Origin: Cenococcum geophilum
Taxonomy: Eukaryota
Direction: 5' to 3'
NCBI GenBank assembly: GCA_050273025.1
Contig: CP158635.1
Coordinates: forward strand, 5,518,001-5,582,000
Length of the DNA stretch: 64,000 nucleotides
The position numbers and the translations under genes were made by a program. The stretch's first letter is position 1. Each line of letters starts with the position of its first letter. Below are positions 10,412 to 58,258 of the stretch, one piece after another. The notes under the pieces are model-generated. The model saw nothing but the letters and a program-made list of their open reading frames with translations, did no database searches and was not told the origin of the DNA.

Positions 10412-12149
10412 TATATAGAAGATATAAAGGCTCTATAAGTACTGCTCTAATATTAAGAACACTAAGGCGATATTATTATATCTAATATACAGCAACTAGA
10501 ATAGCTTAAAAAGCTTAATCTATAAAAGTTAACTACTAGCCACTATTAGGGGACCCTAGATAGATGGCTTATATAATATCCATATAATAAATCAGTATAT
10601 TAATAACCTTATTATAGCGATTAAAAAAAGTTATACGGAACGTCTTGTTTTAACAAGAGTTAACTATAAGGGAGGTAATAGTTGGGTCCCTAACGTATAG
10701 GCCTATTACCTAATAGTAACTACTTTATTTAATAGATCTTATTAAAGTCCCTTAGATTATAAAATTAACTTTTCAACTAAAAGGTTAGTAATATCTACTT
10801 ACGGATATACCTATATCCGCTAATTTAACTCTCCAGTTAAAGCTTGCTAAGGTAATTAGTATTTTTTTATTTTAATTTTACCCCTATATCCGTTATATTA
10901 TACTACGTATAATACTATATATATAACCTCTAGGCTATAGCGCTATAGTTTTATATATATAAATCCTTCCTAAGCAGCTTAATATATACTAGTAGCTATA
11001 TTTTAATAGTTTATAAATATCTAAACTAGGGGTTTATAGCTCCCTAATAAAATACTAGATTACTATAACTATTAGGTAGTAGTAGGAAAGCGAGATTTTA
11101 ACGCCTATTCCTATCCTTTTATTTATTAATATATATCTTTTACTATTAGCTACCCTTTAATAGCTACTCCTATCCTATTTATAAACGCTAGTAGAATATA
11201 TAATAGGAATTATACAACTAACTGGGCTGCTAGTAGTAGTAGTAGTAGTAGTTATAGTTATAGTTATAGTTATTAGAATAGAGACGGTTTACTATAAAAT
11301 CGTGCTATAAGGTTTTAAACTATAAGTACTAGACCTAGTGACTTCCGGCAAGGTCGAGGTCGAGGTTAAACCGGTTATAGGGGCGACAACGCTAGTACTA
11401 AGGTGTATATATGTGGTTATAGAGGGGATAGCGGGGGAGAGGAGGTAGGTAGTCGGTAAGGTGATTAAGGCGATTAAGGTGGTGGTTTACGTTTCAGTAA
11501 TGGCCGAGGTATATGGCTTGGAAGCGGCTTCTAAGGTATTTAAGGTATAGTAGGCGTAGGCATAGGCGTAGGTAGTACGCGAAGTGTTGAAGTACTTTAG
11601 GGCACGGGCAGGAGATAGTTATAGAAGTCGGCTTTAAGTTTTGGCCACGAGCAATTGTCTTTATACTCCTTCATTAACTCCTTAATAGAGTATTCTTTAT
11701 CATTCTAGCTGTATACCCGCCTATTGTAAAAAGCGCACTTTATAAGGTCTTCGTAGTCCCTATAGACTTAATAGTAGAAGGCGGCGGCGAGTTTTATTGA
11801 AGAGAGGTATTAGTAGGGCTAGTCGGTATACGGGCTTATACGGAGGATATCGTTATAAAGCTAGTGTTGATGGCGGAGGCGAGGGCGAAGGCGAAGGCGA
11901 AGGTATTAGTGGAGGAGATATAGCTGGGTATGGCGGGAGCGGTGATATAGGGGGGCGAGAGTATAAAGAAGAAGGCTATAATAGCGGAGAGAGTGGATTG
12001 GGGTTATTCGTAAAAGAGAAAGAAGGCTGTAAAGGAGGCTGTAATAGTGGAGAGAAAGGATTCGGGTCGTCCGTAAAAGAGGTCCGTTCCTTTTTCTTTC
12101 TTTTCCCTTCCTTCCTCTCTGCAGTCATCGCCTGCGTCTTTGGAGCCAT
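10412..12149 (-). pseudogene. RIP-degraded ORF of unknown identity (Lys/Arg-rich start, then Pro/Ser/Thr-rich), interrupted by the LINE fragment
   Basis: Starts MAPKTQAMTAERKEGKRKKKERTSFTDDPNPFSP at 12149, followed by TAG/TAA stops of RIP type. No recognisable domain; extent below 11190 is uncertain. Confidence 0.45.
10862..11185 (-). mobile_element. Short, heavily RIP'd 3'-end fragment of a LINE related to 4350..8410
   Basis: Aligns by eye with 4350-~4740 (tactacgtataatact..., cctctaggctatagcgctatag, ctaaactaggggtttatag) and has the T-rich tail at 10862. No clear TSD. Confidence 0.8.
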
Positions 12150-12520
12150 CGCGAGTTATATTGTGGTTTGTAACTAGTATTCTAAGGTAAAGACAAATTA
12201 ATCCTTTTTTTTAAAATTTTTTTTTTTCACTTCCTCATTTATCCAATTCAACTTGCAAAAATTCCTGCCTACCGATTCGCAAAATCTCCGCCGAAAGAGC
12301 GCGGTATTTTTGCTGCCCCGTCGTGGCATTCAGGTTCTCGTCTAAACACCACGACAAACAGGTTGACACCATCCGCGGCATTAGATTGGGAGCTTGCTTA
12401 AATGGTTTAAGGGTAAGGCTGGACCTCGTCATTCTTCGGAGAGATGTCTAAAAGCATGGCAGTGCTCTGATCAGATCACATGGAGTCCCCGCAATCAATC
12501 TCCCTCGCCCTGTCAGTTAT

Positions 12521-12744
12521 TGTAACCGACTACCAGTACTACGTCAAAGACACTGCTGTATTACCTACTGTGGAACGTAAAGGTTACAGCCGGCCTTAAT
12601 TAGCCTAAAATGTCAATTACGGCTATATTGAGGATAAGATTAAGGGGTACTAGTGACCCACATTTGTTCGTGTATATATAGATACTCTAGATCTACATTT
12701 ACAATCAAGTCGTTCATTTAATTCTTCGCACTGCAAAGCTTACA
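12521..12744. mobile_element. Solo LTR (224 bp), family not otherwise present in the window
   Basis: TGTAA...TTACA termini with TSD GTTAT at 12516-12520 and 12745-12749. Confidence 0.88.
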
Positions 12745-15701
12745 GTTATCCTTTAAGAAGTCTTCTAGAAGCGGGTGAGGGTGAATACTACTAATAAAAG
12801 ACGAGAGAAAGCTTCTAGAGATGGAAGAAAAAGATTAAGTTAGATATGGTAATAACTATATAATTATAATCAGCCGTTGGATTGCGATTACTATATAATT
12901 ATAAGAGGCGATTGCGATTTAATTGCGTAGTTATATTAATTACCTATATTTGGGGTTAAGATCCGATTTTTAGTATAGTAGATAGCCTATAGGACTTACC
13001 TAGATCTTCCTATATTTACCCCAAATTGGTAATAGCCTCTTAGTGTTTAGGAAGGCTCTTAATTGTACTAATTATCCTTATCTAACACCCGGCTATTGCC
13101 TATATTATTGCTGCCCGTATTACTAACTCCTCCCTTAATATTTAACACCTTAGCTGCTACCTCTGCTGACACAAAGCTGCTAGATTTGGCGACTTTGCGT
13201 ATTTAGCTTTTTAAGCACTCTATTTATTTAACTACCATAACTCTAAGCCTATATTGCGACTATAAGATCGCTTGCCATATACCTAAAAAGACTTATTTTG
13301 CTTTAGCTAACATTACTAGTATAGAGAGGATATTAATAGCTATTTAAGAGAGCCTTAGGTAGAGCTTTTACTAAAAGGGCTTAAGCCACTAAGTAAGGGA
13401 AAAGCCGGCAATTAATTGTAGAGGATTTGCCTATAAAAAGATAAGTTAGGTGGTGTTATAAATATTAGAGGTAGATTATATAGTAATAAATTATTTAAAT
13501 TTATTGTTATTAGATAGGCTTTTAAGCTCCCTTATATATTACTACCTCTTATATATATTTTTAATTAGATCTAGATCTACTTACCTAATTAGCTTACTAT
13601 TAATTAGCTTAAACTTATATTCTTTCTACTATAGCTTTTACGCAACCTTAATTGCTTACTTAATTATACTAGGGTAACACTTATTAATTGTCTTCTAGCT
13701 CTTATTAAAATAGGCTTATTAAAGTATTTAATTAAGTAATAAGGCTGCCGCGTATATTAGTGTTTTATTAATTAAGGTATAGTATTTATTAAAAGCAAAC
13801 TATATCGTTAAAAGAGACGTTAAGAGGTAAGTATTAGAAGCGTACTCCTATTATATCTCTTTTATATATTTAATAAGGAAATCTATACTCTAAAGAACCT
13901 TATTTAAAGTTATTAAATTGCCTTTTAAGGCCTTTATTACATCTTTAAATAGTAATAGGATTGCAATTATTTTATAAATTATATTCTATTTATTGTAACT
14001 AAGAGCATTAGTGCTTATCTCTTTATAGTATAAATTTATAAAGACTTAAATTATAGTTTTAAGCTTTATTGCTAGCTTTAGTATAAGAGGCTATAAGTTC
14101 TACCTTATATTATTATTACGTTTTAGTATCTTTTTAGCTAGCTTTAGAAAGGCTTAATATTGCTTTATTAAACGCTTTAACTATATAGCGATATTATATA
14201 TCCTACCTAGGGCTTTAATCTCTTCCCACTTTTTTTAAAAAGTAGCTTTGTCTTAGTTATACTCTCCTTTAAAATAAATATTTAAGTATTACTCCTCCTA
14301 CTAGAGTTCCTTTATTACGTAAATCGCGACTTTAATAACTTCTTTATCTTTATAAAAAAGGAAGGCTTATACTATAAGGTTAATAATATAGCTAATATAG
14401 CGAATTTGGTGCTATATAGTATTCTAAAATGGGAAGCGCTTTTATAGAATTTAATAGAGCTTATTATTACTACCGTAGTTATTACCTAAATTAGGTATAT
14501 TTAGTATAAAACTTAATAGTAGCAAAGGCAGAAAATAAAGCCTATTAGTAAGGTAACTAATCTAGCTTTTAGGAATCTTATATTCCTTAATTACCTTTAT
14601 ATACCTCTTTATGCTCTCTTAATACGATTATAGCTTTTAATAGCTAGCTTAATTTGTTTATAAAATAGGTAGTAACTACTTAATAAGCTATTTTATTTAA
14701 AGCCGTCTAATAATTAGTAATAAAATAGATCTTTAGCTTAGCTTTCTAGAGCCTTAACTTTATATAATCCTTTTAGATTATAAATATCTTACTAATTAAA
14801 ATAGGCACGTTTCTGTAAGATTTATATAAGGGCCTACCCTCTTTTATTAATATATAGTTATAGATTTATAAAAAGGCTTAAAACTCTAGCTACTTAATAA
14901 TTATATAAGGAAGATTGCGAGTGACGATTAAGTATATAAGGGAATTAAGAAAGGTCTTCTCGTTTACTAACTCTTATAGGACTTTTATAGTTCTTAGATC
15001 TTGCCTAGTTACTTATTTCTTAGCTTATTAATTAAACAATATAGTATAGCTTTAGTATTTATATTAACTTTAGATTGCTTTAGTATAGTAAGAATTTTAT
15101 ACGTGTTTTTAAAGTGTTAATAAAAAGTAGTTATACTTAAGCAGACTTGCTAATAAATAAATAATTTAAACCATAGATCTTTGGATTAGTTAATTGGATA
15201 TTTTAAAGCTTTAAGCTTATTTATTTCGTTTGGTTAATTAAACTAGCAAACGGTTTAGATAGATTTAACTATTTGGATAGATTATTATACATTTTTACGC
15301 GATAGGAGGAGAAGCTCTATACTACAATTTAGTAATAGGCGTTTGGTGTTATACTAGGCTTAAGGGTTAAATAAGGTTACATAACTCCAACTTTAATGCA
15401 GAGTTTTCCTATATAAAAGATTGCTTAAAAAATCGATCGCCTCTATAACGGCAGCAATATTAATCCGGCTATATAGCCAATCCTCCCTATATATCATTAT
15501 ATATATACAAAACAGCTCCTAAAGTAAGAGATACGCCTCTTAATAGCACCACAGTTAGAGGCTAGGGTTAAAAATTTAGGTAGAACTTATTGCTTTATTT
15601 AAAAGCTAGCAAACTAAATTAAATAGCGCAATCTCCGGTTAAGTCCGAACTAGTATACAATTTCCTTATTAGGAAAGGTTATTTTCTATATTTAATAAAG
15701 C

Positions 15702-15874
15702 TGTCGGGAATGAGGCAAGCGGTCGTCACGTGTCGTCACGTGTCGCCGCGGCACTAGCGTGGTGAGGAACCTTAGGTTCCTCACCCACCCCCTAATTCTA
15801 AACAATAAGCTTTGCAACCAACATTCACTGTGTCTACTCGAGTAGCATTGGTGAGTTACCCTATGACACCAACA
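15702..15874. mobile_element. Solo LTR (173 bp) inserted in hAT-B
   Basis: TGTCGG...CCAACA termini; TSD AAAGC (15697-15701, 15875-15879); GC-rich compared with its host. Confidence 0.85.
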
Positions 15875-17098
15875 AAAGCCGTTACGGTTCTAGCTTCGCG
15901 TACACTATAAGGCTACGATAATATTAGGCCGTATTTATAAGCGATAAGGCTTAAGTATATTACCGAGCTTACTAAACAATTGTTTGCAGTCGCAGCTTAA
16001 CGGTAGTATACTTAGTATATTAAGCGCCATTTAGCTAAGGTTAGGAAACTTTATTACTATTATCCTCTAATATAAGAACGGATTGTAAGCTAGTAGGTAA
16101 TCTTCTATTAGTGGATTAAGTTTCTTCTACTACTTATACTTATCTTCTTAATTATTAAATAAGGAAGGTGCTATAGTAAAGGCAGTACCTCTAAAGCTTT
16201 TAATAAAGTTATTAATATTAGGTTATAAAGGCTAATTTTTTTTAGAGGCTTACCCTACCAACTATAGCTTTTTTCCTTTATACTTAAGCTAGAGCTTTTA
16301 GAAGGAAGCGTCACAGCTAGTTATCCAATTAGGCCTCTCTTTCTAGTTATTTTAGCAGAATCGCTTAAGGTTAGAGTATAGTAGGTAAGCTGCGTAGTAG
16401 ATAGGCGTCTAATTAAGCGCTATATAGTATTTTTAAAGCTTCGCCCACCTGCGATTAATATTAATTTCGTAGTAATCCTTAATTGCCTCTTAATTAGGAT
16501 AATCCTCTGTCATTACCTTAGTTAATTAAGCCTTAGCTTCTTCGTAGTGCCTTATTAAAAACGCTATATAAGGGATAACTTCCTATATTACGCCATTGCG
16601 CCCAGCCTTACCTCTTTCTTTAAGCTTAAGTGTAGCTTACTAAAGCGGCTTAAGAAGCTAAATATATTGTTTAATAACGTCCTAATTATAGGAAGGCCAC
16701 TAACTCGTATATAGAGAGGTTAATTAAGAGGCTTCTAATACGGATTCGGATTCTTTCTACGTTATTAACTAGACTTGATTATTATAAGCTTTCTATTCCA
16801 TTTATTAATATCGTACTATATTATTAAGGAAATAGGGCCTTAAAGCTTAACAGCCCGTTTAAATATTATTAAATAACTATTCCACTTAGTCTTAATAGGC
16901 TTAACAAGCTTAAGGACTTTAAAATTAGTACGCAGTAGCATAGCGTTTTCCTCTCGCTAGAAGGTATAGAACTATTTATACTTTTATAGCGAACAGATTA
17001 AATAAATAAAATTAATAAGAGTTTTAAGCGGGCCTTCCTTTCGCCATTCCTTTAGGAACTGCTGCTCTTTCTATAAAAGTCTTAGTTTTAATTATATT

Positions 17099-19135
17099 TG
17101 TCTGAATAAGGTTCTATAATATAGTAGACACAGTTGCTTATAACCAATTGGGTTAACCACGTGAGCTAAGCGAGCTTAGGAGATCCATTAAATTCCACCT
17201 GTAGAAGTAGAAAGGAAAAAGAGAAGAAATCGATTAAAACTAAAACCCCCCCCCGTGATCTAAACACTGATCAGTGCCGCGCAGATCAGCAAAGGAATAA
17301 CGAAGAGAGGCACTGTCTGGTTCTCTAGACCTCTTATTAAAGGCTAAGAATTAAGGTATTGCTTACTAAGCCTAAAGGCCAGTTTATAAGGTTACTCGCG
17401 CTTCTAACCTGCGTCTATTACGCCTTTAGAACGATTAGTTTGTAGGTGTTTCCACGCTTCTAGTCCAACTGTTAAATCGAATCAACTGCGGAACTAAAAG
17501 ATGGCTACCTCCGCGATAAATACTGAAAAATCTACCTCCGCAATAGATACTAAAAAATAGAAGACCAGAATTAATGTGACCGCAACCGATATCAAGGAAG
17601 TCGAAGCATTCGTTAATTGGCGATTATTAATATACAAGGAGAATGGATAGAAGGGATTCGACCTATAGGAGAGCTTTATTGACGATTTTGAGTTGTTTAC
17701 AAAGGACATACTTAATAACCTCGGCAAGGATCGATTAAAGAAGATCAGGGATTACCTCTATAAGAATAGAGTATACGTACGGAAGGAGGCAAGGAAGTTA
17801 ATTGTAGACGGCCTCTTAGTAGCTATTCACGAACTAACTCCCTTAAAATGGCCTACCGACGACCCTGCTAACGGCCCTACCGACAACCCTACCGACAACC
17901 CTACTGACGACCCTACTGACGACCCTACCGACGACCCTACCCCACCCCTACCATTACTATTAACTACTCCCGTTTAAGTAACTCCAACCCTAACTACAAC
18001 CCAAGCTATAAACCAGCTCGCCCTATAAGGAAGCTTCGGAAGAGAGATTACTAACTTAGCTAAGCTCTATATGGACAAAGTTAAATACTCTAGCAAACAA
18101 GACAACTTTAATTTTAAGTTTAAGATCTTCTAAAACTACTGCCTCCGAGCCGGCGTCCCTAAGCAAGCGTATATTATTGCTATTCCTACTATACTCCGCG
18201 GCCTTGCCCTTAAATACTACTTTACCTACCTTAAAGATCTTAACCTTAAGAACGTATGCATAGGCCTAAAATTATACTTTAAAGGCAACGAATATAAACG
18301 CGACATCCTATTAAAGTGGAATGCGATTATACTTAAATAAGTTACTGCTTAAAAAGGACTTAATATAGGCTAAGCATTTCAGGTATTAATTAACGAGATG
18401 TGGTAGCTACAACGCGGGTTAGCAAAGGACCTTTAGAATAACACGACATTCTATAATAAGCTTCTTACTACGTGCTAAGATGTATTAGCTTGCAAACCAG
18501 CCTATTTCCGACCCGCTACTACCCTTGCTGGCCTTATTAGCGATATTAAATCCTTAATCGCGACGTACGGTAAACAAGAACCAGAGATTGAATTATTCTA
18601 TACTAACCGACGATATTACCCCCCTAACCGTTAATATCGCAATAAGGGCAAAAAGTGCTTTGTATGCAGTAAATCTAGATATTAGTCTACGAACCATATA
18701 AAGGACAAAAGGGACCGAAAAATACGTCAATATATCTCCGATTTTGAGGGCAGTAACGGCGATACCGACGACGACGACGATAACTAAGGGGATACCTTTA
18801 CAGCAAGGTTTAGAGCTTCTAACTTCTACCTTAATATAGAACCCTATCCTAGTTATTACGGCAACCCTAAGGCGGAGGTGTTTTGGACCGAATTTAAAAA
18901 GGGAGAGGGATAGAGACTACGGACTTATTTACTAGTACCCCTTTCTCTTATTTCCTAGTTGTTGCTAGTATTTGAATAAGGTTCTGTAATATAGTAGACA
19001 CAGTTGCTTATAACCAATTGGGTTAACCACGTGAGCTAAGCGAGCTCAGGAGATCCATCAAATTCCACCTGTAGAAGTAGAAAGGAAAAAGAGAAGAAAT
19101 CGATTGAAACCAAAACCCCCCCCATGATCCGAACA
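17099..19135 (+). mobile_element. Non-autonomous gag-only Copia (GalEa-type) LTR element, 2037 bp, nested in hAT-B
   Basis: LTRs 17099..17266 and 18969..19135; TSD ATATT (17094-17098, 19136-19140); CTGATCAGTG follows the 5' LTR. Gag from ATG 17501 resembles the gag of 22407..28769 (NLAKLY..KYS..NFNFK) and has the zinc knuckle KKCFVC. No pol. Confidence 0.9.
17853..17941 (+). repeat. 12-bp minisatellite (gacgaccctacc-like) encoding (DDPT/DNPT)n within gag
   Basis: About seven tandem units, visible in ORF 17693..17977. Confidence 0.85.
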
Positions 19136-30561: not shown

Positions 30562-31775
30562 TCAATTTTCTTCGATCCATCTCCGCACTTCAGCGGCGAC
30601 CTGGTCGCTATTCTTCTCCATGAACACAAGATGACCGTTCCCATGGATCCCAATCTTCCCTAGGTCCAAATGATCCGTCTTCACCCCTGCCTGCTGCAGA
30701 TATTTCACAAAGCACCAATCATACATGGAATGGTAGGAAGCCTCAGTCGTTAGCACCAGCACTGGAATTTCCTTTAAGTTAATTAATTGACGTGGCGGTG
30801 GAGAGTCTGCCTGAAGAATGCAGGTTGAGGCATTCGGGGAATTAGAAAGTATGACAGTCTTCACCAAGCCAATGACAGGGTCTACAACTTGGGAATCATA
30901 TGTGAGCGGAATGTCCGTCAAGCCATATTTCCTCGTCGACATATTGGAGAACACAGCTTCCTGAAACGGAGGCCCCTTGGGCTCCAGTGCCACAATGGCG
31001 CGAACAAGCTGAGGCCGCACATCTGCTATAAGCCATGGCATCATTCCACCTTGCGAGTGCGCAAGCAGAATTGTAGGACAACCGATACGGTCCAGCAAAG
31101 CTGCCCCAGCAGCCTGTACTGCTAATTGCTCGTAGCCTTCGTCTTTAATAAATTGGATGTTGGAGGCGTAGTAGGCGTCGAAGATCTCATCGCCCATTAG
31201 GCCCTCGCCGGGCCATTGTGTGTGTAGCGCAGCTTGCGGCCAGAGACCGTATTTCTTCGGGGCTGTGAAGCGCTGCTGGATCATCTCGGCACTGTAAGTT
31301 GCCATTGAACCATTACCCGGAAACCACGCGCTACGTGCTCGAAACGCTTGGTCGATGATGAAGCATTCGTAACCGTGCGAGATAAAATATGATGCCCAGC
31401 CCAAGTTTCCGTCTGGTTTGTTTAGCCAGTTCTGTGCACATATTAGGAAGGTGATAACTTGTGCATGGCGTGTGTTGTTGAGTGCGTAAAGGGTGAGACG
31501 CATACTGTACCACTTTGAGCCTGACCATGAATGAAAACAATAGGGTGGGGCTTCGTGGGGCCGTTAAGAGGCGTCAACTGCTCTACGTAAACCTGGTCTT
31601 TGAAAATGTGGTTTCCCGTACCGTCGTCTGCATAGTGTCCACCGGCATAGAAATATTTGCGCGTGTGTGGTGCGTTCTTCCAACTGGACCCAAGGGCAGT
31701 CATATCGCATGCTCCGTAAGCCATAAGCAATAACGGTAAAGTGTGGAGGAATGTTGACGTTAGGGGAGGAAACAT
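30562..31775 (-). CDS. Alpha/beta-hydrolase fold protein (esterase/lipase-like, possibly secreted), 2 exons: 31775..31506 and 31431..30562, 379 aa
   Basis: Joining ORFs 31443..31775 and 30562..31503 across a 74-bp GTATGC...CTAAT...CAG intron (31432..31505) gives [21 protein letters not shown], nucleophile [15 protein letters not shown] and [16 protein letters not shown]. Hydrophobic N-terminus; no RIP signature. Confidence 0.92.
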
Positions 31776-32460
31776 TTGGTAATCGTGCCCCTCCAGTAAA
31801 CCTATGGGCTGGCTTCCTCTTAGTAATGAATTCTTTAGACGTGGTAATTGATAGACAGGAAAATATCATTTCGGCTAAGCACATGCCGCTTCGTACCGGT
31901 ACACGGCTCGTTCCGGATTATTTCTGCCTCATTCCGGGACAAAACCGTCCTTATTTAGGTGCAAGTTGTGTATCGCTTTAAGAGATTATATATGCCCTAT
32001 TCTAAAATATATTTTATACACAGGCCTTTAAATTTAATTGCTAGCACTATTGTATAACGGGACTACCCCAGTTATAGTAAGATCGTCTTAGTAAAACACC
32101 CGACACGATTTAACTACAGGATTTTCGTATTATTCCTCTCTATTCTTCACGCAATGTCTTATTCTCTACAAGAGCTATAATTCTAGACTAGATAGAATTT
32201 ATACAATTCCTTCGAATCTACCCCAAAGCCTCTTCGTACCCTAATATATTGTTACTAACCTAATAATTAAAATGCCAGGACTACTAAGAGAGGAGTTCGC
32301 GGATACTAGTTAGCTAGAAAAGGCACGGGCTATAATAGAATCCGTAGAACTATACAACTAGTAAAAAAAATATATAAAAGGATATATTTTATATATAATA
32401 GGATTATTATATTTAAAGACCTATATTTACTACTTAAATAGCTTCTCTTTTTATAGTAAA

Positions 32461-35400
32461 TGTTACGGACGCTTTAAGTACAATGTTATAACTACTTGGA
32501 GAAGAGTCAAAAGAAGCTAGTTGGTTAATATAAGTATGGTATAAGATAGAACCCGTGGAACTATATAACGAAGGATAGTAAGCAAGTTATATAATGTGCT
32601 ACGTATTAAATAAGAGGAACGAGAGGAACTTACGTACCTTATATATAACACGTATATTATATATAAGAAGGATTTTATAAAAGTACGGTTGTGTATTTAA
32701 GGACCTTTAGTCCCTACCTAGATCCTTCCTTGTAGTAATTCTTAGAATATAATTAAAGTTAATCTATTAAGCAACCACTCTACTAGTTATTATTACGTTA
32801 TTAACTTACTTATAATACCTATACACCTAGCCTATTAACAGGACCTACTGTAGTACCTACTATAAGGTTCCGTTACACAATTACTACTTAATTACGGTTT
32901 TAATAAATCGAATAATATACTACTAAAAGCAGCTACTATAACGCCATTAACGGCGGCAACTACTTTAAGGTTAGGAGGTAATACTAGTATAGCAAATACT
33001 AACTTATAACAACCTATAATAGTTAAACAACTATAAGAGATAGTTAACTAGTTAATAGAGAATAATGCGACGCTTAAATAAAGGATTAACGGGATAGGGG
33101 TAGTAAAGATTAAGTTACCTTTAATTAAGAGATTCTTAGGGGAGAGATTAAAGCTTAAAGAATTTCTTATATAAATACACTTTAAGGTTATATAAGAAGG
33201 AGTAAAACTGCTAATACCTATGGATCGAATAGTATATATAGGGCTATTCCTATCAGAAAGGGCACTTAAGTAGTTTAAATCTTACCTTATAGAAATATAA
33301 GTGAATGGAATAATAACCACTAACTAAGAGGTGCGGTTTATGTTCTTAAGTTAGGAGGGATTTATAGAGCGACTTATATAAATATTTGGAGACCTAGAGG
33401 TAGTAACTATAGTAGAAAGAAAACTCTAAAATATTACGTAACGAACCTTAGCAATTAAGTATATAACATAGTTTTAAACGCTAGCTATATAAGTTAAGTA
33501 GAATAATAAGGCGCTTATAGTATAGTATAAATAGGGACTTAAGGCTAAAGTCTAGGACGTAATTATTCTAATAGAAGATACGGATACCCTAAGAGATTTA
33601 ATAGATTAAGCGATTAAGATTAATAATTGGATTTACTAAAGGGAATAGGCTAAGAGAGGTTAGGATAGAGTTTTATAGTTGTATAAAATGCAGAGCACGC
33701 AACAACTAAAGCTAAGTTAAAAACTATGGTATGGCGTAGAGCTAATAGACCTAAATAGTACTAAAAAAACCTATAAGAGATAGAGTAAGAAACTATAGAA
33801 ACTTAGAGGTTAAGGATCTAGTAATTATAGGACTAAGGAGTAAAGGCTAAACTAGGGATCTTAGTAGTAGAAGATGTTTAGGCGGACTCTATAACAAAGT
33901 TAGTAGTTTAAAAACAGAGCTTATATAAATTATAGGAAATAAGGTTATTTTTAAGGGATTATAAAGATAGTTAGAGTTACTATATAATAAAGGGAACCAG
34001 ATTAGTAAAAGATATACACAAATAGAGGGTTAATAGTGTACTGCGAGGAATAAAAGAATGTTTAATTAGAAGTTTCGCGTTTTATTAAAATAATGCATGC
34101 CGAATTTATAAGGACGCTAAGTATAGCGTAAGCTATTAGCCATAAGAGCTAGAGTTAAAGGGACTTAGAGGAACTAAAGAGTTAGATAAAGAATAAAATT
34201 AACTCTATAAGCTAGATTAAGATATTATAGTAATATACGGATAATAATTAGTAATAATAATAATGGAGTCGGAGTACTTATTAATTAATAGTAATAAGAA
34301 AGAAAAAGGAACTAACTAGGGGTATCTAAACCTTAATAATATAATAGAAGTAGAAACTAAAACCACTACCAAACGGGGCTTAGTAACGGGTATTATAACA
34401 CCATTAGATACAGCATCCATCGCTTTATAAGATAAAAGGAGTAATATTTAAAAGGGATTAAGCAAGCAGATAACTATTAGTGCTAGCTTATTACTTAATA
34501 AAGGCAAAAGGCTAAAGGCTTAAGATTCTTAAGACGAGATAAGAGAGATCTAAAATTCTAAAAATAGGATAAGAATAGCTTAAGGACCCATAACGGATAA
34601 AAACCAATAGAGTAGAGTAGTAGCTTAGTTTAAAGACATACGAATAAGCTTAGGAGAAGAATTCCTAATAACACAAGATTTTTAAGATAAGATAAGTAAG
34701 ATTTAAGACTTTTAAAATAAGATAAGAACACTATAAACGCCTAGTAGGACTAAGGTGGGAGCTAAGCTTAAGTTAAAAGCAAGCTTAGGATTAAGGATCT
34801 TATAGAACTAAGATTTTAATATATAAATAAAAACTATTAACAAGATTAAAAAGTAAGAAGACTTTAAGGATCCACTTATAAAACGCGAAAAAAAAGAAAC
34901 TATAAAGAAATTTAGAGCTAGAATTACATTATGGCAAGAGCAGAAACTAGATAAGAAATTTAGTATACTAGGTTGTATAAGGGATAGAGCACCTATATAA
35001 AGAATTACTAATAGACCTAGAATAGGCATACCGAGAGCTAAGTGGTTTACTAAATTAGAAGAAGAAGAGGATCTAGGGATTTTAACTAGGTTTAAGGAAT
35101 GATATATAAAAGGCTGTTACGATATAGTAATAAAGAGATACTTTCTTATAGATAAGCCGTATACACTCTAAAGGTTATACTAAAGATAGTATAAACAACA
35201 ACACAATAATAAGTGGGAAGATTTCTATATATAGTTAGATGAAAAAGTTATCTAAAACCACCCGATTATAGAGAAGGCTATAACTTATATTAAAGAATCT
35301 AGAGGAGTAATTAGAGGACTAGAGAAGCGAGAGGTAAATTATAGTACCTGCGAATAAAGTTGTAACGCTTAAATTAATACAATAGAGGTTTAAACTTAAG

Positions 35401-38400: not shown

Positions 38401-40305
38401 ATTATATATTATCCGCAGACAGATAGTTAAACGGAAAGATTAAATTAGACACTAGAGTAGTATCTAAGATACTATATTAATTACGTATAGAATAATTAGG
38501 TATTGTTATTACTAGTTATATAGTTTATATATAATATAACACTATAAGAAGGAATAGGTATATTACCATTTAAGGCAAATTATGGATACGAGCTAAGAAT
38601 ATTATTATTGCTATATTAAGTAAAGAAAATAAGTAGTAGAGCTAAGTAAAGAATAGAGACTTTAATAAATCTTTATATAGACCTTATAGAAATAGCAAAA
38701 ACAGTATAGCAAAAAATAAAAAAGTATTATAATGCTAAGAGATCTAAGGGACTAGATCTTAAGGAGGGAGATAAAGTATAGCTACTATATAAAAATTTTA
38801 AGAGTTAATGACTAAGTAAGAAGTTAGACTATATTAAACTAGGACCTTTTAAAATTACTTAAAGAATTTTACCGGTTATATTTAAGTTAAACCTACCAGC
38901 CAAAATAAAGATCTACCCTATATAGTATATTACAATGCTAAAGCTAGTATATAGAAATATTAAGCTACCGGTTTATAAAGCAGATATGTATAAAGAATAA
39001 GAAGAGGACGAATAGTAGGTTTTAAAGATTATTAGTTATAAGGATATTAACGATAAAATATAGTATAAGGTAAAGTAAATAGGCTATAATAAGACTACTT
39101 AAGAGCCACTATAGAATTTAAAGAACGCTATAGGAAAGGTATAGGAGTATTAGAAGAAAATAGGTTAGGTAATATTAATAAAGAAAAATCACCAAAGAAC
39201 GCGTTACCTAAGGGGGACTTAGGAAGAGCGACTATTAAACTACTCGGAGTTATTTCCTTTAAGGGAGGAGAGTTAGTTCTCTTATTACTAAGTTCCTGTA
39301 GACCTTATTTTATAAGTTTCCACTCCTTAAAACAAACTTTCTTACGTACTTTCTTAAGACGAACTAGCTAAGTAGACGTCGCGATGCGAGTATCTAGGGC
39401 CTTCTATTCTACATCTTAAGAACGCTTAAGCTTAGCAAGGGCCTACGCTAGGTTACCGTCTAACTTTATAGCGATAGTTTAAACACAAGACCCTATAACA
39501 AATTACTTAGGGAACTTAAAGACTATTAAGAGTTATAGGATGCGTATATTTAGCGTTAAAAGTAAAATAAACGTCATAAGAGAAACGAATATTTGCTTTA
39601 GTATACTCTAAGTAAGAGGATAGTTGCCGAGATAAAGGACTCGCTAGCGCAATATAAACTAACCCCTTTCTTATATAACGAGAATATAGAGATAGTATAA
39701 TTTTACTAAGCGATAATATGGCAGCAATAGTGCGAGTACAACATTGCGCGTATAAAGAAGAAGAAGCTTTAGGTATAATAAGTAACAATATTAACCAAAT
39801 TAATTAGACGGACATTACACCTCTAGTAGATAACTTAAAGATATTAGGAATCTTTAAGGATAAAGATAAAGAGGAGGGAGATAGTATTACGGACGCTTTA
39901 AGTACAATATTATAACTACTTAGAGAAGAGTTAGAAGAAGCTAGTTAGTTAATATAAGTACGGTCTAGGATGGAACCCGTAGAACTATATAATAAAGGAT
40001 AGTAAGTAAGTTATATAATATGCTACGTATTAAATAAGAGGAATAAGAGGAACTTATATACCTTATATATAACACGTATATTATATATAAGAAGGATTTT
40101 ATAGAAGTATGGTTGTGTATTTAAGGACCCTTAATCCCTACCTAGATAGTTCCTTCCTTATAGTAATTCTTAGAATATAATTAGAGTTAATCTATTAGGC
40201 AACTACTCCACTAGTTATTATTACGTTGTTAACTTACTTATAATACCTACACACTTAGCCTATTAATAGGACCCACCGTAATACCTGCTACAAGGTTCCG
40301 TTATA
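32461..40305 (+). mobile_element. Full-length Ty3/Gypsy chromovirus (element E, 7845 bp), RIP-degenerate
   Basis: LTRs 32461..32877 and 39885..40305; TSD GTAAA (32456-32460, 40306-40310); PPT gaggagggagatag. Gag, long spacer, PR (VLVDSG ~35900), RT (LYIDYRQLN ~36565, VYLNDIIIY ~36860), RNase H, IN, chromodomain (~39000-39150). Confidence 0.96.
39180..39788 (-). pseudogene. Antisense accessory ORF of Gypsy E: RIP'd Zn2Cys6-like motif, predicted 55-bp intron (39493..39547), coiled-coil-like C-terminus
   Basis: Six Tyr codons (TAT/TAC, the RIP products of TGT/TGC) spaced Y-x2-Y-x6-Y-x13-Y-x2-Y-x8-Y at 39576..39686; same spacing at 57371..57481. Confidence 0.7.
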
Positions 40306-45831: not shown

Positions 45832-48800
45832 TGTAACGGAACCTTATAGCAAGTACTACGGTGGGTTCGTTATTGGGCTAGGTATATAGGTAAAGCAAAT
45901 TAAGTCAACAACGTAATAATAACTGGTGGAGTGGTTGCCTAACAGATTAACTCCAATTATATTCTAAGAATTACTACGAGAAAGGAACTATCTAGGTAGG
46001 GACTAAGGGTCCTTAAATACACAACCGTACTCCTAAGAAAGTTGTTGCTCTATCTGCTCTGTCTGCTCTGTTCGCTCTATTATAGATCTCGCAGATTATA
46101 CAGATTATACAGATTATATCACGTGACCTTGCTTACCATTCCTCGTCATATGGTTCCACGGGTTCCAACCTAGACCGTGCCTGTATTAACTAACTAGCTT
46201 CTTCCGACTCCTCTCCAAGTAGTCGTAACATCGTACTTAAAGCGTCCGTAACACCATCTCCCTCCTCTCCATCTTCGTCCTCGAAGATACCTAGCATCTC
46301 CAGGTCGTATACTAGAGGTGTGCGTAAAGATTCATCAAAGTCTCCATTCTTTGCTTGGCTTTGCTACTTGTCTTCTTTGCTTAACGTGGCGATAATGATG
46401 TTCTTAGCTTATATCCATAATTCGCCTTAAATGGTGACGTGCCTATTCCTTCTTATGGTGTTGCATTGTATATAAACTATGTAACTGGTAATAGTAATAC
46501 CTAATTGTTCTGTGCGTAATTGATATAGTGCCTTAGATACTGCTCTAGTGTCTAGTTTAATCTTTTCGTTTAACTGTCTGTCTGCGGATAATATGCGGTG
46601 GAAGTTACTGCTTGAACCCCTTGCTCTGCTAAGAATACTTCCTAGAATACTACTATAAATCTTAGATCTCTGTCCGATATAATCTTGCTTAGTGCTCTAT
46701 ATCTTGCGAACACTTCTTTAACATAGATTCTAGCGACATCTTCCGCTAAGATTTCCTCTATGCATGCTATAAAGTATCCCTACTTTGTTAGCTTATCTAC
46801 TATTACTAAGATTATGTTATAATCTTATCCGGTAATAGGGTCTCTTAATTTTAGCAACTTAATAATAAAGTCCCACAATATAACTTCCTATGGTCTCTCT
46901 GGTATTTTAATAGGTTATAGCCCTCTATATAGCTTATACCTCGTTAATTTATTTCTTTAGCAATTTAGATATTCCTTTATGACTTATCTTGCTAGTCCCT
47001 AGATTCTATTAATAATGTACTCTTCTTATAGTCTTAACACTAAGCCCGTAGCTCCGTTATGTCCTTAAGTTAGTCCCTTATAAAATGACTTAATAAACTC
47101 CTTTGCAATAGACCTTGGTACGTATATTACTTCTTAGTTTTCGTACTACTCTAAGTCTGGATCCTCTGCCTGTGCTTCTTAGATCTTTTATAACCATTTA
47201 CTCTCTAGTAATTTATGGGTCTAATTAGTTTCTCTTATTACTGCGATTTTCGGATAGTTGTATCTAATTAATCCGTCTGTATCTTTTCGCAGTAAAGCCC
47301 CTAATGGCTTTTTGTTATTCTATAGTTTAGCTTTTCTACTTAGAGCATCTGCTCGTGCATTGTCTGTACCCTTGGTATGCTAAATCTTAAAATAGTATTC
47401 TATAAGCATCTCTGCCCATCTAACTTATCTTTAATTAAGTTCTTTTGTTGTTAGGAACCCCATTAGGTTCTTATAATCCGTTTTAACTATAAATAGTTTC
47501 TCTATGCCTTGTAAGAATGCTCTCTATTCCTAAAGTACTATAACTATACCTAATAACTCCTTGTTATAGATGTTATAGTTTAGTTCTGGTGGTATTATCT
47601 TCCGACTATAGTATGCCACTAGGTGCTATCCATCCTTATATTTCTATAGGAAGCACGCCCCTAGTGTAAAGTCTAATACATCCGTTTCGACCACTATCTC
47701 TAACTTTAGTTAGTAGATTTTGAGGATTAGTTCTTAAGTGAATAACTCCTTAACCTCCTTAAATAGTTTCCTCTGTTCTTTTCTCTATACCCAAGGTTCT
47801 TCTTTCTTTATTAATCTTATAAATAGCTTGATGTCCTTTAACTATTGAGCTATAAACCTTCTATAGTAATTACAAAACCCTAGAAATAACCTTAACTATA
47901 TTATATTCTCTAGTTCTTACTAATTTACTATAGCCTCGATCTTCTTTGGATCTATACTAAGTTAGCCTAGTTTAATAATAAATCCGACGAAATTGGTCTT
48001 CCTAGTGAAGAACTCGCATTTCTTAATTGCTACTGGTATCTGTTCTTTTTATAGTCTCTCTAAAACCTATTTAATGTGTTTTCCGTGCTCTTCCTTATTT
48101 ATTAAGTAGATAATAATATCGTTAAGGTATGCTATAATAAACTTATCCAAGTATTTTCTTAATATATTATTAATACGCTTCTAGAACGTTGCTAGTACGT
48201 TTATAAGCCCGAATTGTATAACTAATGGCTTATATAGTCCTTCCTTTGACCTAAAAGCTGCCTTCTATTTATTGCCTTCCTTAATTCTAATCTAATGGTA
48301 CGCCCATCTTAGATCTATCTTTGTAAAGATTTATGCATTACCAATCCTATCTTAGATTTCGCTAATTAAGGGTAAAGGATACCTATCCTTTCTAGTGATA
48401 CTATTTAACTGTCTATAGTTAATGTATAGCCTAAGTTTTCCATTTTTCTTTAGGACGAATAGTACTGGATAACCCGCTAATAACTGTGATAGTCTAATAT
48501 ATCCCTTTCGTAAGTTCTCCTAGATAAACTCTTTAAGTGCTCTTCCTTCCTCTTTGGTAAGCTTATAGATTGGAAAGAACCTTAGACTTATTCCTGGTTC
48601 TAATTCTATTTTATAGTCCTATGCTGTATATTTTAACAGCTTTTCACTTTCTGGTAACTATAGTTTCTTACTGTACTTGTGGTATCTCCTTAGTACATAA
48701 CTTAGTCCTTTTTCTGTTTCCTTATAGGTCGCTCCTACTTAGTACTATACTAACTTGGCTTATTATTGTATCTTATAGCGTTAAGTATCTCTAATATCGA

Positions 48801-51800
48801 CCTAACCTGTAATCTAATCGATTTTTGGATTGTATTTCTGTAACTAAGGCATTCCTAACACTGCTTTATTATTCCCTAATAGTAATATATTAAAAGACAT
48901 TTTAACTAGTCTTCCTTTAATGGTTAGCTGAATAGGTCCTATTTTAAGATTAATAATGCCTCCTTTATAGGCTATTGGATCTCCTAAAATCGTTACTAAT
49001 AGGTAAGGGTGTTCCTTTTGTCTGTATAGTAACCCTATTCTTTTAACTGCTATTAGCGAGATATAGTTTCTTATTACTCCACTATCTATTAATGCCTTAA
49101 ACTACTGATCTTACCATTTAACTCGTAAATTTAGGTATTGTCCTTAAATTCCTTTAAGGGTCTAAGGCTCTACTACTGGTTCCCTCTGGTCCCGTGGGCC
49201 TTTACTTTTCCTAACTATTAGCTGCTTGATCCTATTTATACTTAGTCCAACTTAGGCCAATACTTAGTTCGCTTTTTGTCTTTAATATACTATAGATAGG
49301 TATTTTCTGGATATTCCTACTATTATCGTCCATCTAGGTATTCTTCCGTAAGAAATCTTCCTAATTAAAGTATTAAGTCTCCCTGTTCTTAAACTTCTAC
49401 TAAATGCCAACTATATATATACTTAGCGTTTTGGTATTTCGCCTTATCCGTTATCTAATACATTCTTATTAAATACTTTTAATTTTTATTCTTTGGTGCT
49501 CTATATATATTATACGTATTATCCACGCATGCTATCTATAATAGTATATAATAAGCTTAATGTTTTAGGTTAACTCTTAGCTTGTCTTTATTTTTAAGTT
49601 TAAACCTTTCTTGTGTTAATTTAAGCGTCGCGACTTTGTTTATAGGTACTAAGATTTACCTCTTACTTCTCTAGTCCTCTAATTACTCCTTTAGATCCTT
49701 TAACGTTATAATTAAGGCTCCCTTAATATAAGTTATAGCCTTCTCTATAATTAGGTGGTTTTAAATAACTTTTTTATCTAACTACATGTAGAAATCTTCC
49801 TACTTATTATTATGCCTTTACCTATACCACTTTTAGTACAGTTACTTAAGTATATACGGTTGGTCCGTAAGGAAGTATCTTTTTATTACTGCGTCGTAAC
49901 AACCTTTAGTGTGTTGTTCCTTAAACCTAGTTAGAATCCCTAGATCCTCTTCTTGTTCCAGTTTAGTAAGCCACTTGGCCCTTAGTATGCCTATTTTCGG
50001 CCTATTAGTAATTCTTTGTACTAGCGCTCTGTCCCTTATACGTCCCAATATGCTAGATCTTTTATTTAGTTTCTGTTCTTGCTATAAGGTAATTCTCGCT
50101 CTAAATTCCTCTATAGTTTCTTTTCTTTTGCGTCTTGCGAGTAGATCCTTAAAGTCTTTATGCTTTTTAATTATAGTATTAAATTTTTAATCTTTAGGCT
50201 GAATACTGCGTTCCCCTGGTAAGTCTTCTGGGTCTATATATTGGTCTCCTAATCTAACTGCTGTTTATATTATAGATTCTCTAATCTATAACGAAGCTCC
50301 TTACCTCTTGCCTATGGGTGTCCTTATTTATACTCTAAAATCTTGGTCCCTTAGATTCTTTAATCCTAAGCTTACTTCTAACTTAAGCTTAGCTCCCGCC
50401 TTAGTCCAATTAGGCGTCCGTAGTGTTCTTATCTTGTCTTAAGAGTCTTAAATCTCACTTATCTCGTCTTAAGAGTCTTATGCCTGTGGGAAACTCTATC
50501 CTAAGCTTATTTGTATATTTCTGAACTAAGCTACTACCCTACTCTATTGGTTTTTGTCCGTTGTGGGTCCTTAGGTGTGCCTTATTTTGTCTTAAGAATC
50601 TTAGTTATCTCTTATCTCGTCTTAAGAATCTTAAGCCTTTGGCCTTTTGCCTTTATTAAGTGGTAAGCTAGCACTAGCAGTCGTCTGCTTACTTAATTAT
50701 CTTTAGATATTACTTTTTCCGTCTTATAAAGCGATGGATACCGTATCTAATAGTGTTATAGTGCCCGTTACTAAACCTTACTCTATAGCGGTTTCGGTCT
50801 CTACTTTTATCGCGTTATTAAGGTTTAGATACCCCTAGTTAGCTCCCTTACTATCCTTATCGCTATTAATTAATAAGTACTCTAACTCTATTATTATTGT
50901 TACTAATTTTTGTCTATATATTACTGTAATATCTTAATCCAGCTTATAGAGTTAATCTTATTCTTTATCTAACTCTTAAGTCCCTTTAAGTTTTCTTAAC
51001 TCTGGTTCTTGTGGCTAATAGCTTACGCTATACTTAGCGTCTTTATAAATTTGGTATGCGTTATTATAACAAAACGCGAAACTTCTAATTAAACACTCTT
51101 TTGTTCCTTGTAGTATACTATTATCCCTCTATACGTATATATCTTCTACTATTAGTCTAGTTCCCTTTATTATATAGTAACTTTAACTATCTTTATAATC
51201 CCTTACGAAATAACCTTATTTCCTATAATTTATATAAGCTCTATCTCTAAACTACTAACTCTATTATAGAGTCCGCCTAAACGTCTTCTACTAATAAGAT
51301 TCCTGGTTTGGCCTATGCTCCTTAGTCCTATAATTACTAGATCCTTAACCTCTAGGTTTCTATAGTTTCTTATTTTATCTCTTATAGGTTTCTTTAGTAC
51401 CGCTTAGGTCTATTGGCTCTGCGCCATACCATAGTTTTTAACTTGGCTTTTATTGTTGCGTATTCTACGCCTTATATAACTATAGAACTCTGTCCTAACC
51501 CTTTTTAGCCTATTCCCTTTAGAAGATCCTATTGTTAATCTTAATCGCCTAATTAATTAATTCCCTTAGGGTGTCCGCATTTTCTATCAGAATAATTGCG
51601 TCCTAGACTTTAGCCTTAAGTCCCTATTTATACTGTGCTATAAGCGCCCTATTATTCCATTCGACCTATATAGTAAGTGTTTAAAACTATGTCATATACT
51701 TAATTACTAAAGTTCGCTGTATTAGGTTTTAAAGCTTTTTCTTTACTGTTGTCGTTGCTTCTGGGTCCCCGAATATCTATATTAATTATTCCGCGAATCC

Positions 51801-52704
51801 TGCCTAGCTAGAAAACACAAATTGTACCTCTTAATTAGTAGTAGTTATTCCGTTAGTCTATATTTCCATTAAGTAGGGTTTAAACTATTTAAGTACCCGT
51901 CCTATTAAGAATAGTCCTGCGTAGGCTATCTGATCTATTATTATGGCTAACTTAGCCCCTTCTTGTATAACTTTAAAATGTATTTATATAAGAAATCCTT
52001 TAAGCTTTAATCTCTTTCCTAAGAATCGTTTAATTAAAGGTAACTTAACCTTTACTACTCTAATTCCATTAAGTCTTTCTTTAAGTGTTTAGTTGTTCTC
52101 GTTTAACTTATTAATAATTTCCTATAACTGCCCGACCGTAACTGGTTGTAAGTTAGTATCTTATATACTTGTATCTCTACTTGTCCTTAAAGTGGTTGCT
52201 TTTATTAACGGCGTTATAGTGGCTGCTTTTGGTAGCATGTTGTTTAACTTCTATATTTATTACTGTAACTAGGTAGTAATTATATAACGGAACCTTGTAG
52301 CAAGTACTACGGTGGGTTCGTTATTGGGCTAGGTATATAGGTAAAGTAAATTAAGTTAATAACGTAATAATAACTAGTGGAGTGGTTGCCCAATAGATTA
52401 ACTCTAATTGTATTCTAAGAATTACTACGAGGAAGGAACTATCTAGGTAGGGACTGAGGGTCCTTAAATATACAACCGTACTCCTAAGAAAGTTATTACT
52501 CTATTTGCTCTATCTACTCTATTCGCTCTGTTATAGATCTTGCAGATCATACAGATTATATAGATCACATCACGTGACCTTGCTTACTATTCCTCGTTAT
52601 ATGGTTCCACGGGTTCTAACTTAGACCGTGCCTGTATTAACCAACTAGCTTCTTCCGACTCCTCTCCAAGTAGTTATAACATTGTACTTAAAGCGTCCGT
52701 AACA
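45832..52704 (-). mobile_element. Gypsy element G (E family, inverted, 6873 bp) with an internal deletion of IN C-terminus, chromodomain and antisense ORF
   Basis: 422-bp LTRs at 45832..46253 and 52283..52704; TSD TAAAT (45827-45831, 52705-52709). Collinear with E, but the sequence jumps from the E 38680 equivalent to the E 39820 equivalent at ~46320. Confidence 0.95.
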
Positions 52705-56700: not shown

Positions 56701-58258
56701 ATCTACTCTATATAGTATATTGTAATACTAGAGCTAGTATATAGGAATATTAAGCTACTAGTCTATAAGATAGATATATATAGAGGGCAAGAAGAAGATA
56801 AACAGTAGGTTTTAAAGATTATTAATTATAAGGGTATAGATAATAAAATATAGTATAAAGTAAAGCAAATAGGCTATAATAAGACTACCTAAGAGCTACT
56901 AGAGAACCTAAAATATGCTATAAGAAAGGTATAGGAGTATTAGAAGAAAATGGGTTAAGTAATATTAATAAAAAAGGATTATTAAAGAACGAGTTACTTA
57001 ACGGGGACCTAAAAGAATTAGCTACTAAGGTATTTAGAGTTATTTCCCTCTCTATTAGAATAGAATCCCTTTTTTATCCTCTTCCAGTTTATAAAGGCCT
57101 TATTTAGTAAGACGCCACTCCTTTAAATAACCCGTCTTATAACCCTTTTTAAGACAGAGTAGCTAAGTATGACTAGCTAATTAAGCGTTAAATACTTGCC
57201 GCTCTTTAGCATAAATACGCTCCCTATTATCTTAAAGTTTTTATACCTTAGTAAGAGCTAAGGTAAGTTTGCCCTTAAGATAAAAGGCCTTAGATTAAAT
57301 ATAAGACTCTATAATAGATTAGATAAGGTACTAAACGCCTATAAAATATATTAGAAACAGATTAAACATTATAAAACGATTGTTTATTTAATTTTATATA
57401 CTTAGTATATAAAGAAGGTTGGTAACTAAACGGAGCCGCGATTATAATATATTTTAGCACTTTCTCTATATAATGAGAATAGGACGGTATAAATTTACTA
57501 AGTAATAGTATAGTAGTTACCAGCCAATTATAATAATTAGATAATAAGGATCTAATAAAAGGTATTATAAATTAAGAAGGTTATTAAATTAAAGAGGGAA
57601 ATACTATACCTCTAATTAATAATTTAGAGATAGGAGATGTCTTTAAGGATAGAGATAAAAAGGAGGGAGATGGTATTACAGACCTTATATTAGTAGTAGT
57701 AGAATTATTAAGAAGAGATATAAATAGGTTAGTTAAGATAATATAGGAGGCATTAGAACTAATTAAGCTATAGGATAAAGAGTAGCTAAGTTATATAATA
57801 AGTTATAAGATTATAACTTAGTATGTAGGTATATAAGTATATAAGTATATATAACGTACTAACGTATTAATATACTACTAGTAAGTACATTTCCTAGGAG
57901 TTAGATTATATATTTAAAGGACTATCCCTTAACCCGTCAAGGCCCTTAGCATAAGTGGTCCGTGCGGAACATTGTTCTTAATAAAGTCAAAGGCTTCGTA
58001 TTTCTAAGAACGGCTGCTTAATTTAACTGGTTTGATTAGTAGGCTCTTATCGATACCGTAAGGACCAATTTTAACGGGTTAAGGGATAGTCTCTACCTAG
58101 ATAGTTCTATTTTTTATAGTAAATCTTAAAATATAATTAGAGTTAATCTATTAGGCAACCACTCTGCTAGTTATATTGACGTTATTAACTTCTTATTTAC
58201 CTATATACTTAGCCTATTATTAAGTCTATTGTAGTATTTCCTGTAAGACTTTATTACG
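56701..58258 (+). mobile_element. 3' fragment of a divergent E-family Gypsy (element H): IN end, chromodomain, antisense ORF, PPT, 3' LTR ~57674..58258
   Basis: 56701 onward aligns with E from 38911; PPT aggagggagatgg; the LTR 3' half matches the E LTR (ctacctagatagttc...gagttaatctattaggcaaccactc). Confidence 0.85.
57925..58086. mobile_element. MITE-like insertion inside the LTR of element H
   Basis: Inverted ends gactatcccttaacccgtcaa / ttaacgggttaagggatagtc; segment absent from the E-family LTRs; non-coding. Confidence 0.75.

Follow-up and report, generated by a model that had tools for sequence, protein, structure and literature searches.

In a stretch of 64,000 nt of the Cenococcum geophilum contig CP158635.1 (the window, to which all coordinates refer), a degraded retrotransposon, here called element E, carries on its minus strand at 39128-39776 what is best explained as a copy, inactivated by repeat-induced point mutation (RIP), of a conserved two-exon accessory gene shared by a family of Ty3/gypsy chromoviruses, where it lies antisense between pol and the polypurine tract. 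We regard this explanation as quite probable, and it draws on an open frame, a history of Cys-to-Tyr replacement, splice signals, a long helix, conservation of both position and orientation, and a broad family. In its unmutated form, the gene is predicted to encode about 190-210 residues. The protein would begin with Met-Pro and a short N-terminal helix, followed by a C-x2-C-x6-C-x13-C-x2-C-x8-C module and a Trp codon split by a GT-AG intron of 55-130 nt, and would then continue with a long helix that changes in length by whole heptads, a KEF/WxLxxQGLxEL block and a Ser/Pro-rich tail overlapping the last codons of pol.

Structure and state of the gene in element E

An open frame of 95 codons on the minus strand (39516-39803) includes LYSRYIRKGLVYIALASPLSRQLSSYLEYTKANIRFSYDV and holds six Tyr codons between 39576 and 39686, five TAT and one TAC, in the place of six Cys. 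Their positions (39686-84, 39677-75, 39656-54, 39614-12, 39605-03 and 39578-76) give the spacing x2-x6-x13-x2-x8 on which the original prediction was founded. The codons belong to exon 1 (39548-39776, minus strand), which encodes the N-terminal helix and the module and is free of stops in this copy. The intron predicted between the exons is 55 nt long (39493-39547, minus strand), ends in a TAG acceptor and begins with ATACGC, a RIP-type change of the donor GTACGC; it splits a Trp codon, T/GG, with the last base of exon 1 (T 39548) on one side and the first bases of exon 2 (GG 39492-91) on the other. Exon 2 (39128-39492, minus strand), whose 3' end overlaps the end of pol, encodes the long helix, a KEWKLIK(Q)GLQEL block and the Ser/Pro-rich tail. 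At the other end of the gene, about 110 nt from the inner side of the 3' long terminal repeat (LTR), the start codon is ATA (39774-39776), E reading IIPKASS where homologues read MPKASS or MPPIRS. As judged from its sequence, the copy in the window is a dead relic without present function, because the start codon has gone from ATG to ATA, the six Cys are all Tyr, the donor has gone from GT to AT and exon 2 contains six internal stops.

The limits of the element agree with the antisense location that had been proposed for the module, flanked on one side by the chromodomain at the 3' end of pol and on the other by the polypurine tract with its adjoining 3' LTR. The two LTRs, at 32463-32875 and 39887-40303 (both plus strand), form the direct repeat families D1 and D2 and are 90-91% identical to each other by blastn. 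The integrase of the element, on the plus strand, is riddled with stops, and the 3' end of pol retains a chromodomain remnant (plus strand, approximately 39001-39160) in the frame from 38302, EEDE..VLKIISYKDINDKI*YKVK*IGYNKTT*EPL*NLKNAIGKV*EY*KK. About 700 bases separate the chromodomain from the purine-rich tract (39852-39880, plus strand), which adjoins the 3' LTR on its inner side and appears on the minus strand as the pyrimidine run ctccctcctctttatctttatccttaaag.

The window holds a second version of the gene in C3, a diverged fragment from the 3' part of a related element (about 56701-57800), whose six-Tyr module lies on the minus strand at 57371-57481 (YSHYIEKVLKYIIIAAPFSYQPSLYTKYIKLNKQSFY) and from which 21 nt have been lost around the donor. 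Identity between E and C3 is about 90% in the chromodomain and only about 60-65% in the region of the antisense gene, where all six Tyr still align. At four further sites, Cys in E faces Tyr in C3 (CC versus YY; VICYRVLCL versus LIYYRVLYL).

Origin of the Tyr codons

RIP converts TpG to TpA and hence TGY to TAY codons, and DNA mutated in this way is rich in Tyr codons. This would favour the view that there is no antisense gene at all, and that the open frame is either a chance product of RIP-skewed composition or the shadow of a C-terminal extension of pol on the sense strand. In a chance control, we counted stop-free patterns of six Tyr or Cys with Gal4-like spacing in all six frames of the window and in 100 dinucleotide shuffles. 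The window contains two such patterns, one at 39686 and the other at the corresponding site of C3, 57481, while the shuffles gave a mean of 0.04-0.08 patterns per window and a maximum of 1, which argues against chance.

The 95-residue frame was compared by phmmer with 1.84 billion representative proteins, and 82 of these matched at an E-value of 1e-3 or lower, 11 of them at 1e-10 or lower. Subsequent profile searches matched 1211 and then 1020 proteins, all from ENA or JGI assemblies. In the 82 matches, the six columns are occupied by Tyr and Cys as Y51/C27, Y49/C31, Y70/C10, Y55/C17, Y38/C33 and Y40/C28, with 1 to 13 remaining letters or gaps per column. A motif of Cys or Tyr at the six positions is present in 247 of the 271 proteins retained, and the number of Cys per motif ranges from none to six (0 in 10 proteins, 1 in 46, 2 in 75, 3 in 68, 4 in 38, 5 in 8 and 6 in 2). 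All six Cys are naturally kept in the proteins P0090 and P0157 and in exon 1 of the locus L016. Since the homologous columns hold Cys or Tyr and natural six-Cys versions exist, the Tyr residues of E are RIP-mutated Cys, as had been claimed; homologues that kept Tyr throughout would have spoken against this origin, and among those found, two proteins and one locus carry Cys at all six positions.

The same history is recorded in the codons. Across 47 related loci, every one of the 282 codons at the six sites is TGY or TAY (TGT 133, TAT 115, TGC 21 and TAC 13), and the third base is always a pyrimidine because the Cys is coded on the strand of the antisense gene; the sense strand would give an unselected mixture of His and Gln at these sites. 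A comparison of reads was uninformative in this respect, as none of the six Tyr positions is among the 41 listed of 280 differing places.

Regarding the homologues as a set, no name other than 'hypothetical protein' occurs among the matches listed, that is, the 82 of the first search, the best 120 of 1211 and the best 120 of 1020, and no Pfam domain is on record among the best 120 of either profile search. A search among longer proteins (351-2000 residues) returned zero homologues, which is weak evidence. In single open reading frame (ORF) calls, P0017, P0083 and P0084 (the last of 118 residues) have tandem six-Cys/Tyr modules, which suggests local duplications or nested copies.

A two-exon gene model in related loci

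Two sources supplied copies for comparison: the window, and one metagenome that yielded 80 loci (L001-L080), 47 of which span the gene. Homologues begin with Met-Pro, and of the 46 loci with a base at the third place of the start codon, 25 have G and 21 have A there, the remaining locus having a gap. Exon 1 measures 225 nt in 44/47 loci. Of the donors, 23 read GT and 24 the RIP-type AT; 43 acceptors keep AG and 4 have AA; and at the junction, 40 loci show an intact TGG codon and 7 a codon derived from it by RIP. In the less mutated relatives, the donor reads GTATGT, GTACGT or GTGCGT and the acceptor TAG, with the junction T/GG as in E. In particular, L001, the least mutated copy (GC 0.41), reads AAG T/GTATGT...CTTAG/GG around an intron of 61 nt that contains an in-frame TGA. 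The introns fall into classes of 61 nt (21 loci) and of 124, 127 or 130 nt (26 loci); in the long class, a branch site that reads CTAAC or CTAAT (CTAAC in L016) precedes the TAG by about 14 nt. The intron at 39493-39547 is supported by these copies, because the donor and acceptor of E occupy sites homologous to the splice signals of its relatives. The proposed intron with its split Trp codon has held in this comparison, as has the expectation of an antisense frame and splice sites conserved across copies.

Exon 2 follows the layout SxVQSAAKKLD..., a variable middle, KEFRLVEQGLRELESEE and a Ser/Pro-rich tail. It is 381 nt long in 23 loci, 360 nt in 9, 402 nt in 6, 339 nt in 5 and of other length in 4, so that the lengths in 43/47 loci differ by multiples of 21 nt (seven residues). 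Among the sub-lineages of L001-L080, the sequence of the middle part is very variable and both ends are conserved.

The position of the gene relative to pol is likewise shared. The pol frame of L001 ends just behind the chromodomain (...KKKKD and a stop), and the same is true of L016 and L022; in L001, pol and the antisense gene overlap tail to tail, since the antisense frame ends about 53 nt past the pol stop. Downstream of the antisense gene, L001 has an integrase and a chromodomain, and homology to the 3' part of pol is found downstream on the opposite strand in 42 of the 47 loci with room for it.

Which strand is coding

Between E and C3, transversions are unevenly distributed over codon positions, with counts of 11, 13 and 27 in the frame of exon 1 (39500-39800; p about 0.01, chi-square) and of 11, 13 and 30 in the shifted frame of exon 2 (39190-39500; p about 0.002, chi-square). 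Such periodicity alone does not settle the strand, because wobble-aligned frames on the sense strand fit the same phases; in favour of a sense extension of pol, these partner frames are fairly open in L001 and obtain the second-best scores. Nevertheless, the frames on the gene strand give the top translated alignment in 6/6 comparisons of E with L001, L022 and L016, by modest margins, and the highest BLOSUM sums between E and C3. In L001, the antisense frame is interrupted by a single stop, which falls in exon 2, compared with seven stops for the sense frame, and the shift of frame coincides exactly with the canonical splice signals. Taken together with the invariant TGY/TAY rule, the alignment scores, BLOSUM sums, stop counts and splice signals identify the antisense strand as the apparent coding strand. 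The absence of an antisense gene, already disfavoured by the immediate stop of pol behind the chromodomain and by the restriction of the pattern to two homologous places, is in our estimate extremely unlikely.

The same data bear on a further possibility, namely that the stretch is a fragment of a captured host gene, passively copied with the element and without a role for it. Pick-up of host sequence by retrotransposons does occur, a retained intron fits genomic capture, and function has so far only been inferred. Against this stands the recurrence of the gene, its place, its orientation, its intron position and its T/GG junction in lineages whose proteins are only 35-65% identical (E, C3, the L001 group and a group of 106-108 residues), together with the codon periodicity of the substitutions, the preservation of frame by the 21-nt steps of exon 2 and the lack of a Pfam-named host paralogue among the best 120 of 1211 and the best 120 of 1020 matches. 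We consider such a passive passenger very unlikely.

Build of the predicted protein

The accessory gene proposed here would encode a protein whose build invites comparison with the Gal4-type Zn(2)Cys(6) proteins Gal4, Ppr1 and Put3, which have a dimerising coiled coil behind the cluster, the family binding two zinc ions and DNA sites of the CGG type; in small Zn2Cys6 dimers, a long helix follows the Cys module directly. Indeed, the module shares with PF00172 the arrangement of six Cys as two CxxC...C halves, basic residues after the second Cys (CSRCxKKGLxC) and a Pro shortly before the fourth Cys, and it resembles this family further in the long helix directly behind it and in being restricted to fungi. 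The PROSITE-type pattern of the cluster is C-x2-C-x6-C-x5-12-C-x2-C-x6-8-C. In E, C3 and the L family, the third gap is 13 and exceeds this range by one residue, whereas the other gaps fit. The predicted protein also differs in being encoded by a retrotransposon, in its size of about 200 residues and in being without the fungal-specific middle homology region.

Pfam was searched with natural six-Cys homologues (P0157 and exon 1 of L016) rather than with a de-RIPped sequence of E, the gathering cut-offs being 21 bits for Zn_clus (PF00172) and 22 bits for DUF3716 (PF12511). The 95-residue frame of E itself had no match at an E-value of 10 or lower, which is expected because Tyr replaces Cys. PF00172 stayed below its cut-off with both homologues, at 16.5 bits for P0157 (profile positions 16-36 only) and 14 bits for L016 exon 1 (positions 20-36 only). 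The aligned part corresponds to the second half of the model and lies on the first CxxC, so that the register is shifted, and matches to PF00172 were obtained for 3/31 members of alignment A3 at an E-value of 1 or lower and for 1/41 members at 10 or lower. Membership in the Gal4-type Zn2Cys6 family, as put forward in the original prediction with PF00172 as its test, is therefore not borne out, the scores falling short, half of the model being aligned in a shifted register and the third gap being 13.

DUF3716 offers a different view of the module. According to this alternative, the gene is real and its Cys module is another zinc or disulphide module, for example a distant relative of DUF3716, in which case the product would not be a transcription factor with a Gal4-type DNA-binding domain but an accessory factor that binds protein or RNA, for instance as a chaperone, as an adaptor for packaging or targeting, or by opposing silencing. 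The DUF3716 profile aligns over nearly its full length to the two six-Cys members (positions 7-59 of 59 for P0157 and 3-59 of 59 for L016 exon 1), in contrast to the half alignment of Zn_clus, and the gap of 13 residues between the third and the fourth Cys is hydrophobic (GLVCIAIAAPSSRQPSS). DUF3716, a domain of fungi that contains cysteines, is also found in Ascomycota, measures about 60 residues and is linked to transposons; a passage of PMC8232023 places it in two genes of REP9, a class II transposon of Zymoseptoria tritici. Yet REP9 is a DNA transposon, the scores of 16.4 bits (E-value 0.0086) for P0157 and 12.1 bits (E-value 0.19) for L016 exon 1 do not reach 22, and 1/31 members of A3 matches at an E-value of 1 or lower. 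In the ESM Atlas, the neighbours are Ascomycota clusters of both DUF3716 (TM 0.67) and Zn_clus, all of them under the confidence bars of the Atlas, and the order of a Cys module and a long helix is that of the small Zn2Cys6 dimers. We see this alternative as possible but rather doubtful; the occurrence of DUF3716 in REP9 hints that such cysteine modules may recur in unrelated fungal transposons.

Structure prediction, which had been suggested as a further check, gave models of unequal confidence. The helical tail was supported, since AlphaFold2 models residues 1-59 of L022 exon 2 as a single helix (residues 2-58) with a mean predicted local distance difference test (pLDDT) score of 96.7, and together with the length classes of exon 2 in steps of 21 nt this bears out the helix that had been read from the next frame of the minus strand; heptad periodicity by a simple Fourier measure was not clear-cut. 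For exon 1 of L016 (118 sequences), the model has helices at 7-24, 31-35 and 52-65 and a mean pLDDT of 57.5, hence low confidence. In the Zn_clus fold, a pair of zinc ions is surrounded by two short helices that each start at a CxxC, and the helices 31-35 and 52-65 of this poor model do begin at the two CxxC pairs. Foldseek found 0 matches for it in the PDB and VIA-align reached a Z of at most 3.2, with unrelated chains, the model being too poor for either result to have meaning. On the whole, the six-Cys module of Zn2Cys6-like spacing is probably zinc-binding.

Several observations count against the two-exon accessory gene as the explanation of this stretch, the low-confidence model of the module being one of them. 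No Pfam family reaches its cut-off for the members tested, and the family profile of A3 gave 0 matches to PDB sequences at an E-value of 10 or lower. The sense partner frames score only slightly lower than the gene-strand frames (114 versus 159 and 89 versus 96), and the pol frame of L001 is fairly open beyond the chromodomain. Every homologue derives from ORF calls in metagenomes, and at least one internal stop is present in exon 2 at all 47 loci, so that there is no fully intact copy among them. An unspliced, short product is possible, because the lengths of the intron classes (61, 124, 127 and 130 nt) are separated by multiples of 3, which leaves the unspliced frame in register, and many ORF calls read through the intron to give 106-108 residues. 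Finally, an RNA run yielded 14 reads on the stretch, all partial, mostly over the chromodomain and none joining across the intron, which carry no information on expression.

Element E and its surroundings

The window is AT-rich, with a GC content mostly of 0.26-0.40, and is crowded with degraded repeats. A second copy of the E family lies on the minus strand at 45832-52702 and is about 80% identical to E; by blastn it matches positions 1-6213 and 7355-7841 of E and nothing between, being without the 1.14 kb that correspond to 38675-39817 in E and comprise the chromodomain and the whole antisense gene. A further LTR of the family, about 89% identical to those of E, is found at 9521-9945 and is probably a solo LTR, because the blastn table shows no internal part beside it. 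Amid the repeat relics, a GC-rich island (GC 0.47-0.50) on the minus strand at 30562-31865 contains an apparently intact host gene, in which an open frame of 333 codons matches an alpha/beta hydrolase family (Abhydrolase_6, E-value 1.1e-07) and a second one of 140 codons lies upstream, an intron probably separating the two.

The 1.1 kb at 38900-40000 match 12,000-18,000 contig pieces at a likeness of at least 80% in two organisms and a root metagenome, and no sequencing run contains more than 0.48 of the exact words of this segment. On these matches, the element family appears highly repeated in the two matched organisms and present in soil and root samples as well.

Relation to known antisense genes of retrotransposons

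Genes in a comparable place have precedents. In fungi, the gene brtn is said to have been described in Boty elements by Zhao et al. 2011, Virology 417:248. Passages in PMC8365987, PMC7264820, PMC4227169 and PMC5987419 present it as an additional antisense gene between pol and the 3' LTR in Boty-like gypsy elements of Botrytis cinerea and Sclerotinia sclerotiorum, so that brtn and the gene described here have in common an extra antisense gene, the interval between pol and the 3' LTR and a chromodomain-bearing gypsy element of an ascomycete. The gene of E (39128-39776, minus strand) lies in this same interval, and the layout is repeated in L001 and in 42 of the 47 loci with room for it. The likeness is one of position and orientation, and the present family differs in counting more than 1000 metagenome proteins, with a dead copy in the window. 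The label 'brtn-106', which appears in PMC4227169, recalls the many 106-residue ORF calls of the family, which is a hint only; the supplements of PMC8365987 do not mention brtn.

In plants, the gypsy elements Grande1, RIRE2, Retand and PvRetro13 are likewise reported in the review PMC7264820 to carry additional antisense ORFs in the interval from pol to the 3' LTR; these are conserved within families and without an established function, in the same position and orientation as the gene of E. They belong to another kingdom and to other lineages of elements, and the comparison concerns position and orientation. To our knowledge, the plant ORFs are not known as Cys-cluster proteins. For fungi, a figure legend of a 2010 survey (PMC2864245) marks an 'add. 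ORF' in some chromoviruses. The architecture is not new, because brtn, the plant antisense ORFs and the fungal 'add. ORF' precede it, and a literature search, with most subscription journals outside its scope, found no paper that ties such an antisense gene to a Zn2Cys6 or six-Cys motif. The gene can accordingly be described, from its sequence, as a new example of an antisense accessory gene in fungal chromoviruses, the regulator-like build of its product being informative but unproven.

Possible role and significance

In active relatives of element E, transcription antisense to the element would start from the inner side of the 3' LTR, and the intron would be spliced from this antisense transcript. 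The six Cys may bind zinc and the helix may pair two chains, in the manner of small Gal4-like DNA-binding dimers, and the protein would then act on the element's behalf, its most probable role being to regulate the element's expression or integration by binding nucleic acid. Being antisense would also allow the intron to persist through retrotransposition, as its splice signals are not displayed by the sense genomic RNA; this is established reasoning, which has been applied to the antisense extra ORFs of plants as well.

A bolder version, which we consider unlikely, would hold that fungal chromoviruses of a large clade possess a small, dimeric zinc-cluster protein of their own that binds DNA and is made from an antisense transcript which starts in the 3' LTR and is spliced, and that this protein recognises the LTR or integration targets and controls the timing and place of expression and insertion; it may share ancestry with the DUF3716 genes of DNA transposons. 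If true, such a protein would be a fungal counterpart to the accessory regulators of retroviruses.

For the annotation of AT-rich fungal repeats, it is useful to consider that RIP can disguise a zinc module as a run of Tyr. A gene of this kind would also provide a concrete hypothesis for the unexplained genes of the brtn type, open to test by asking whether their products bind zinc, form dimers and recognise LTR DNA. All in all, LTR retrotransposons are usually thought to need gag and pol alone, and a conserved, spliced antisense gene for a protein with a cysteine cluster and a long helix would, in many lineages of fungal chromoviruses, add to these a regulator or adaptor of their own.

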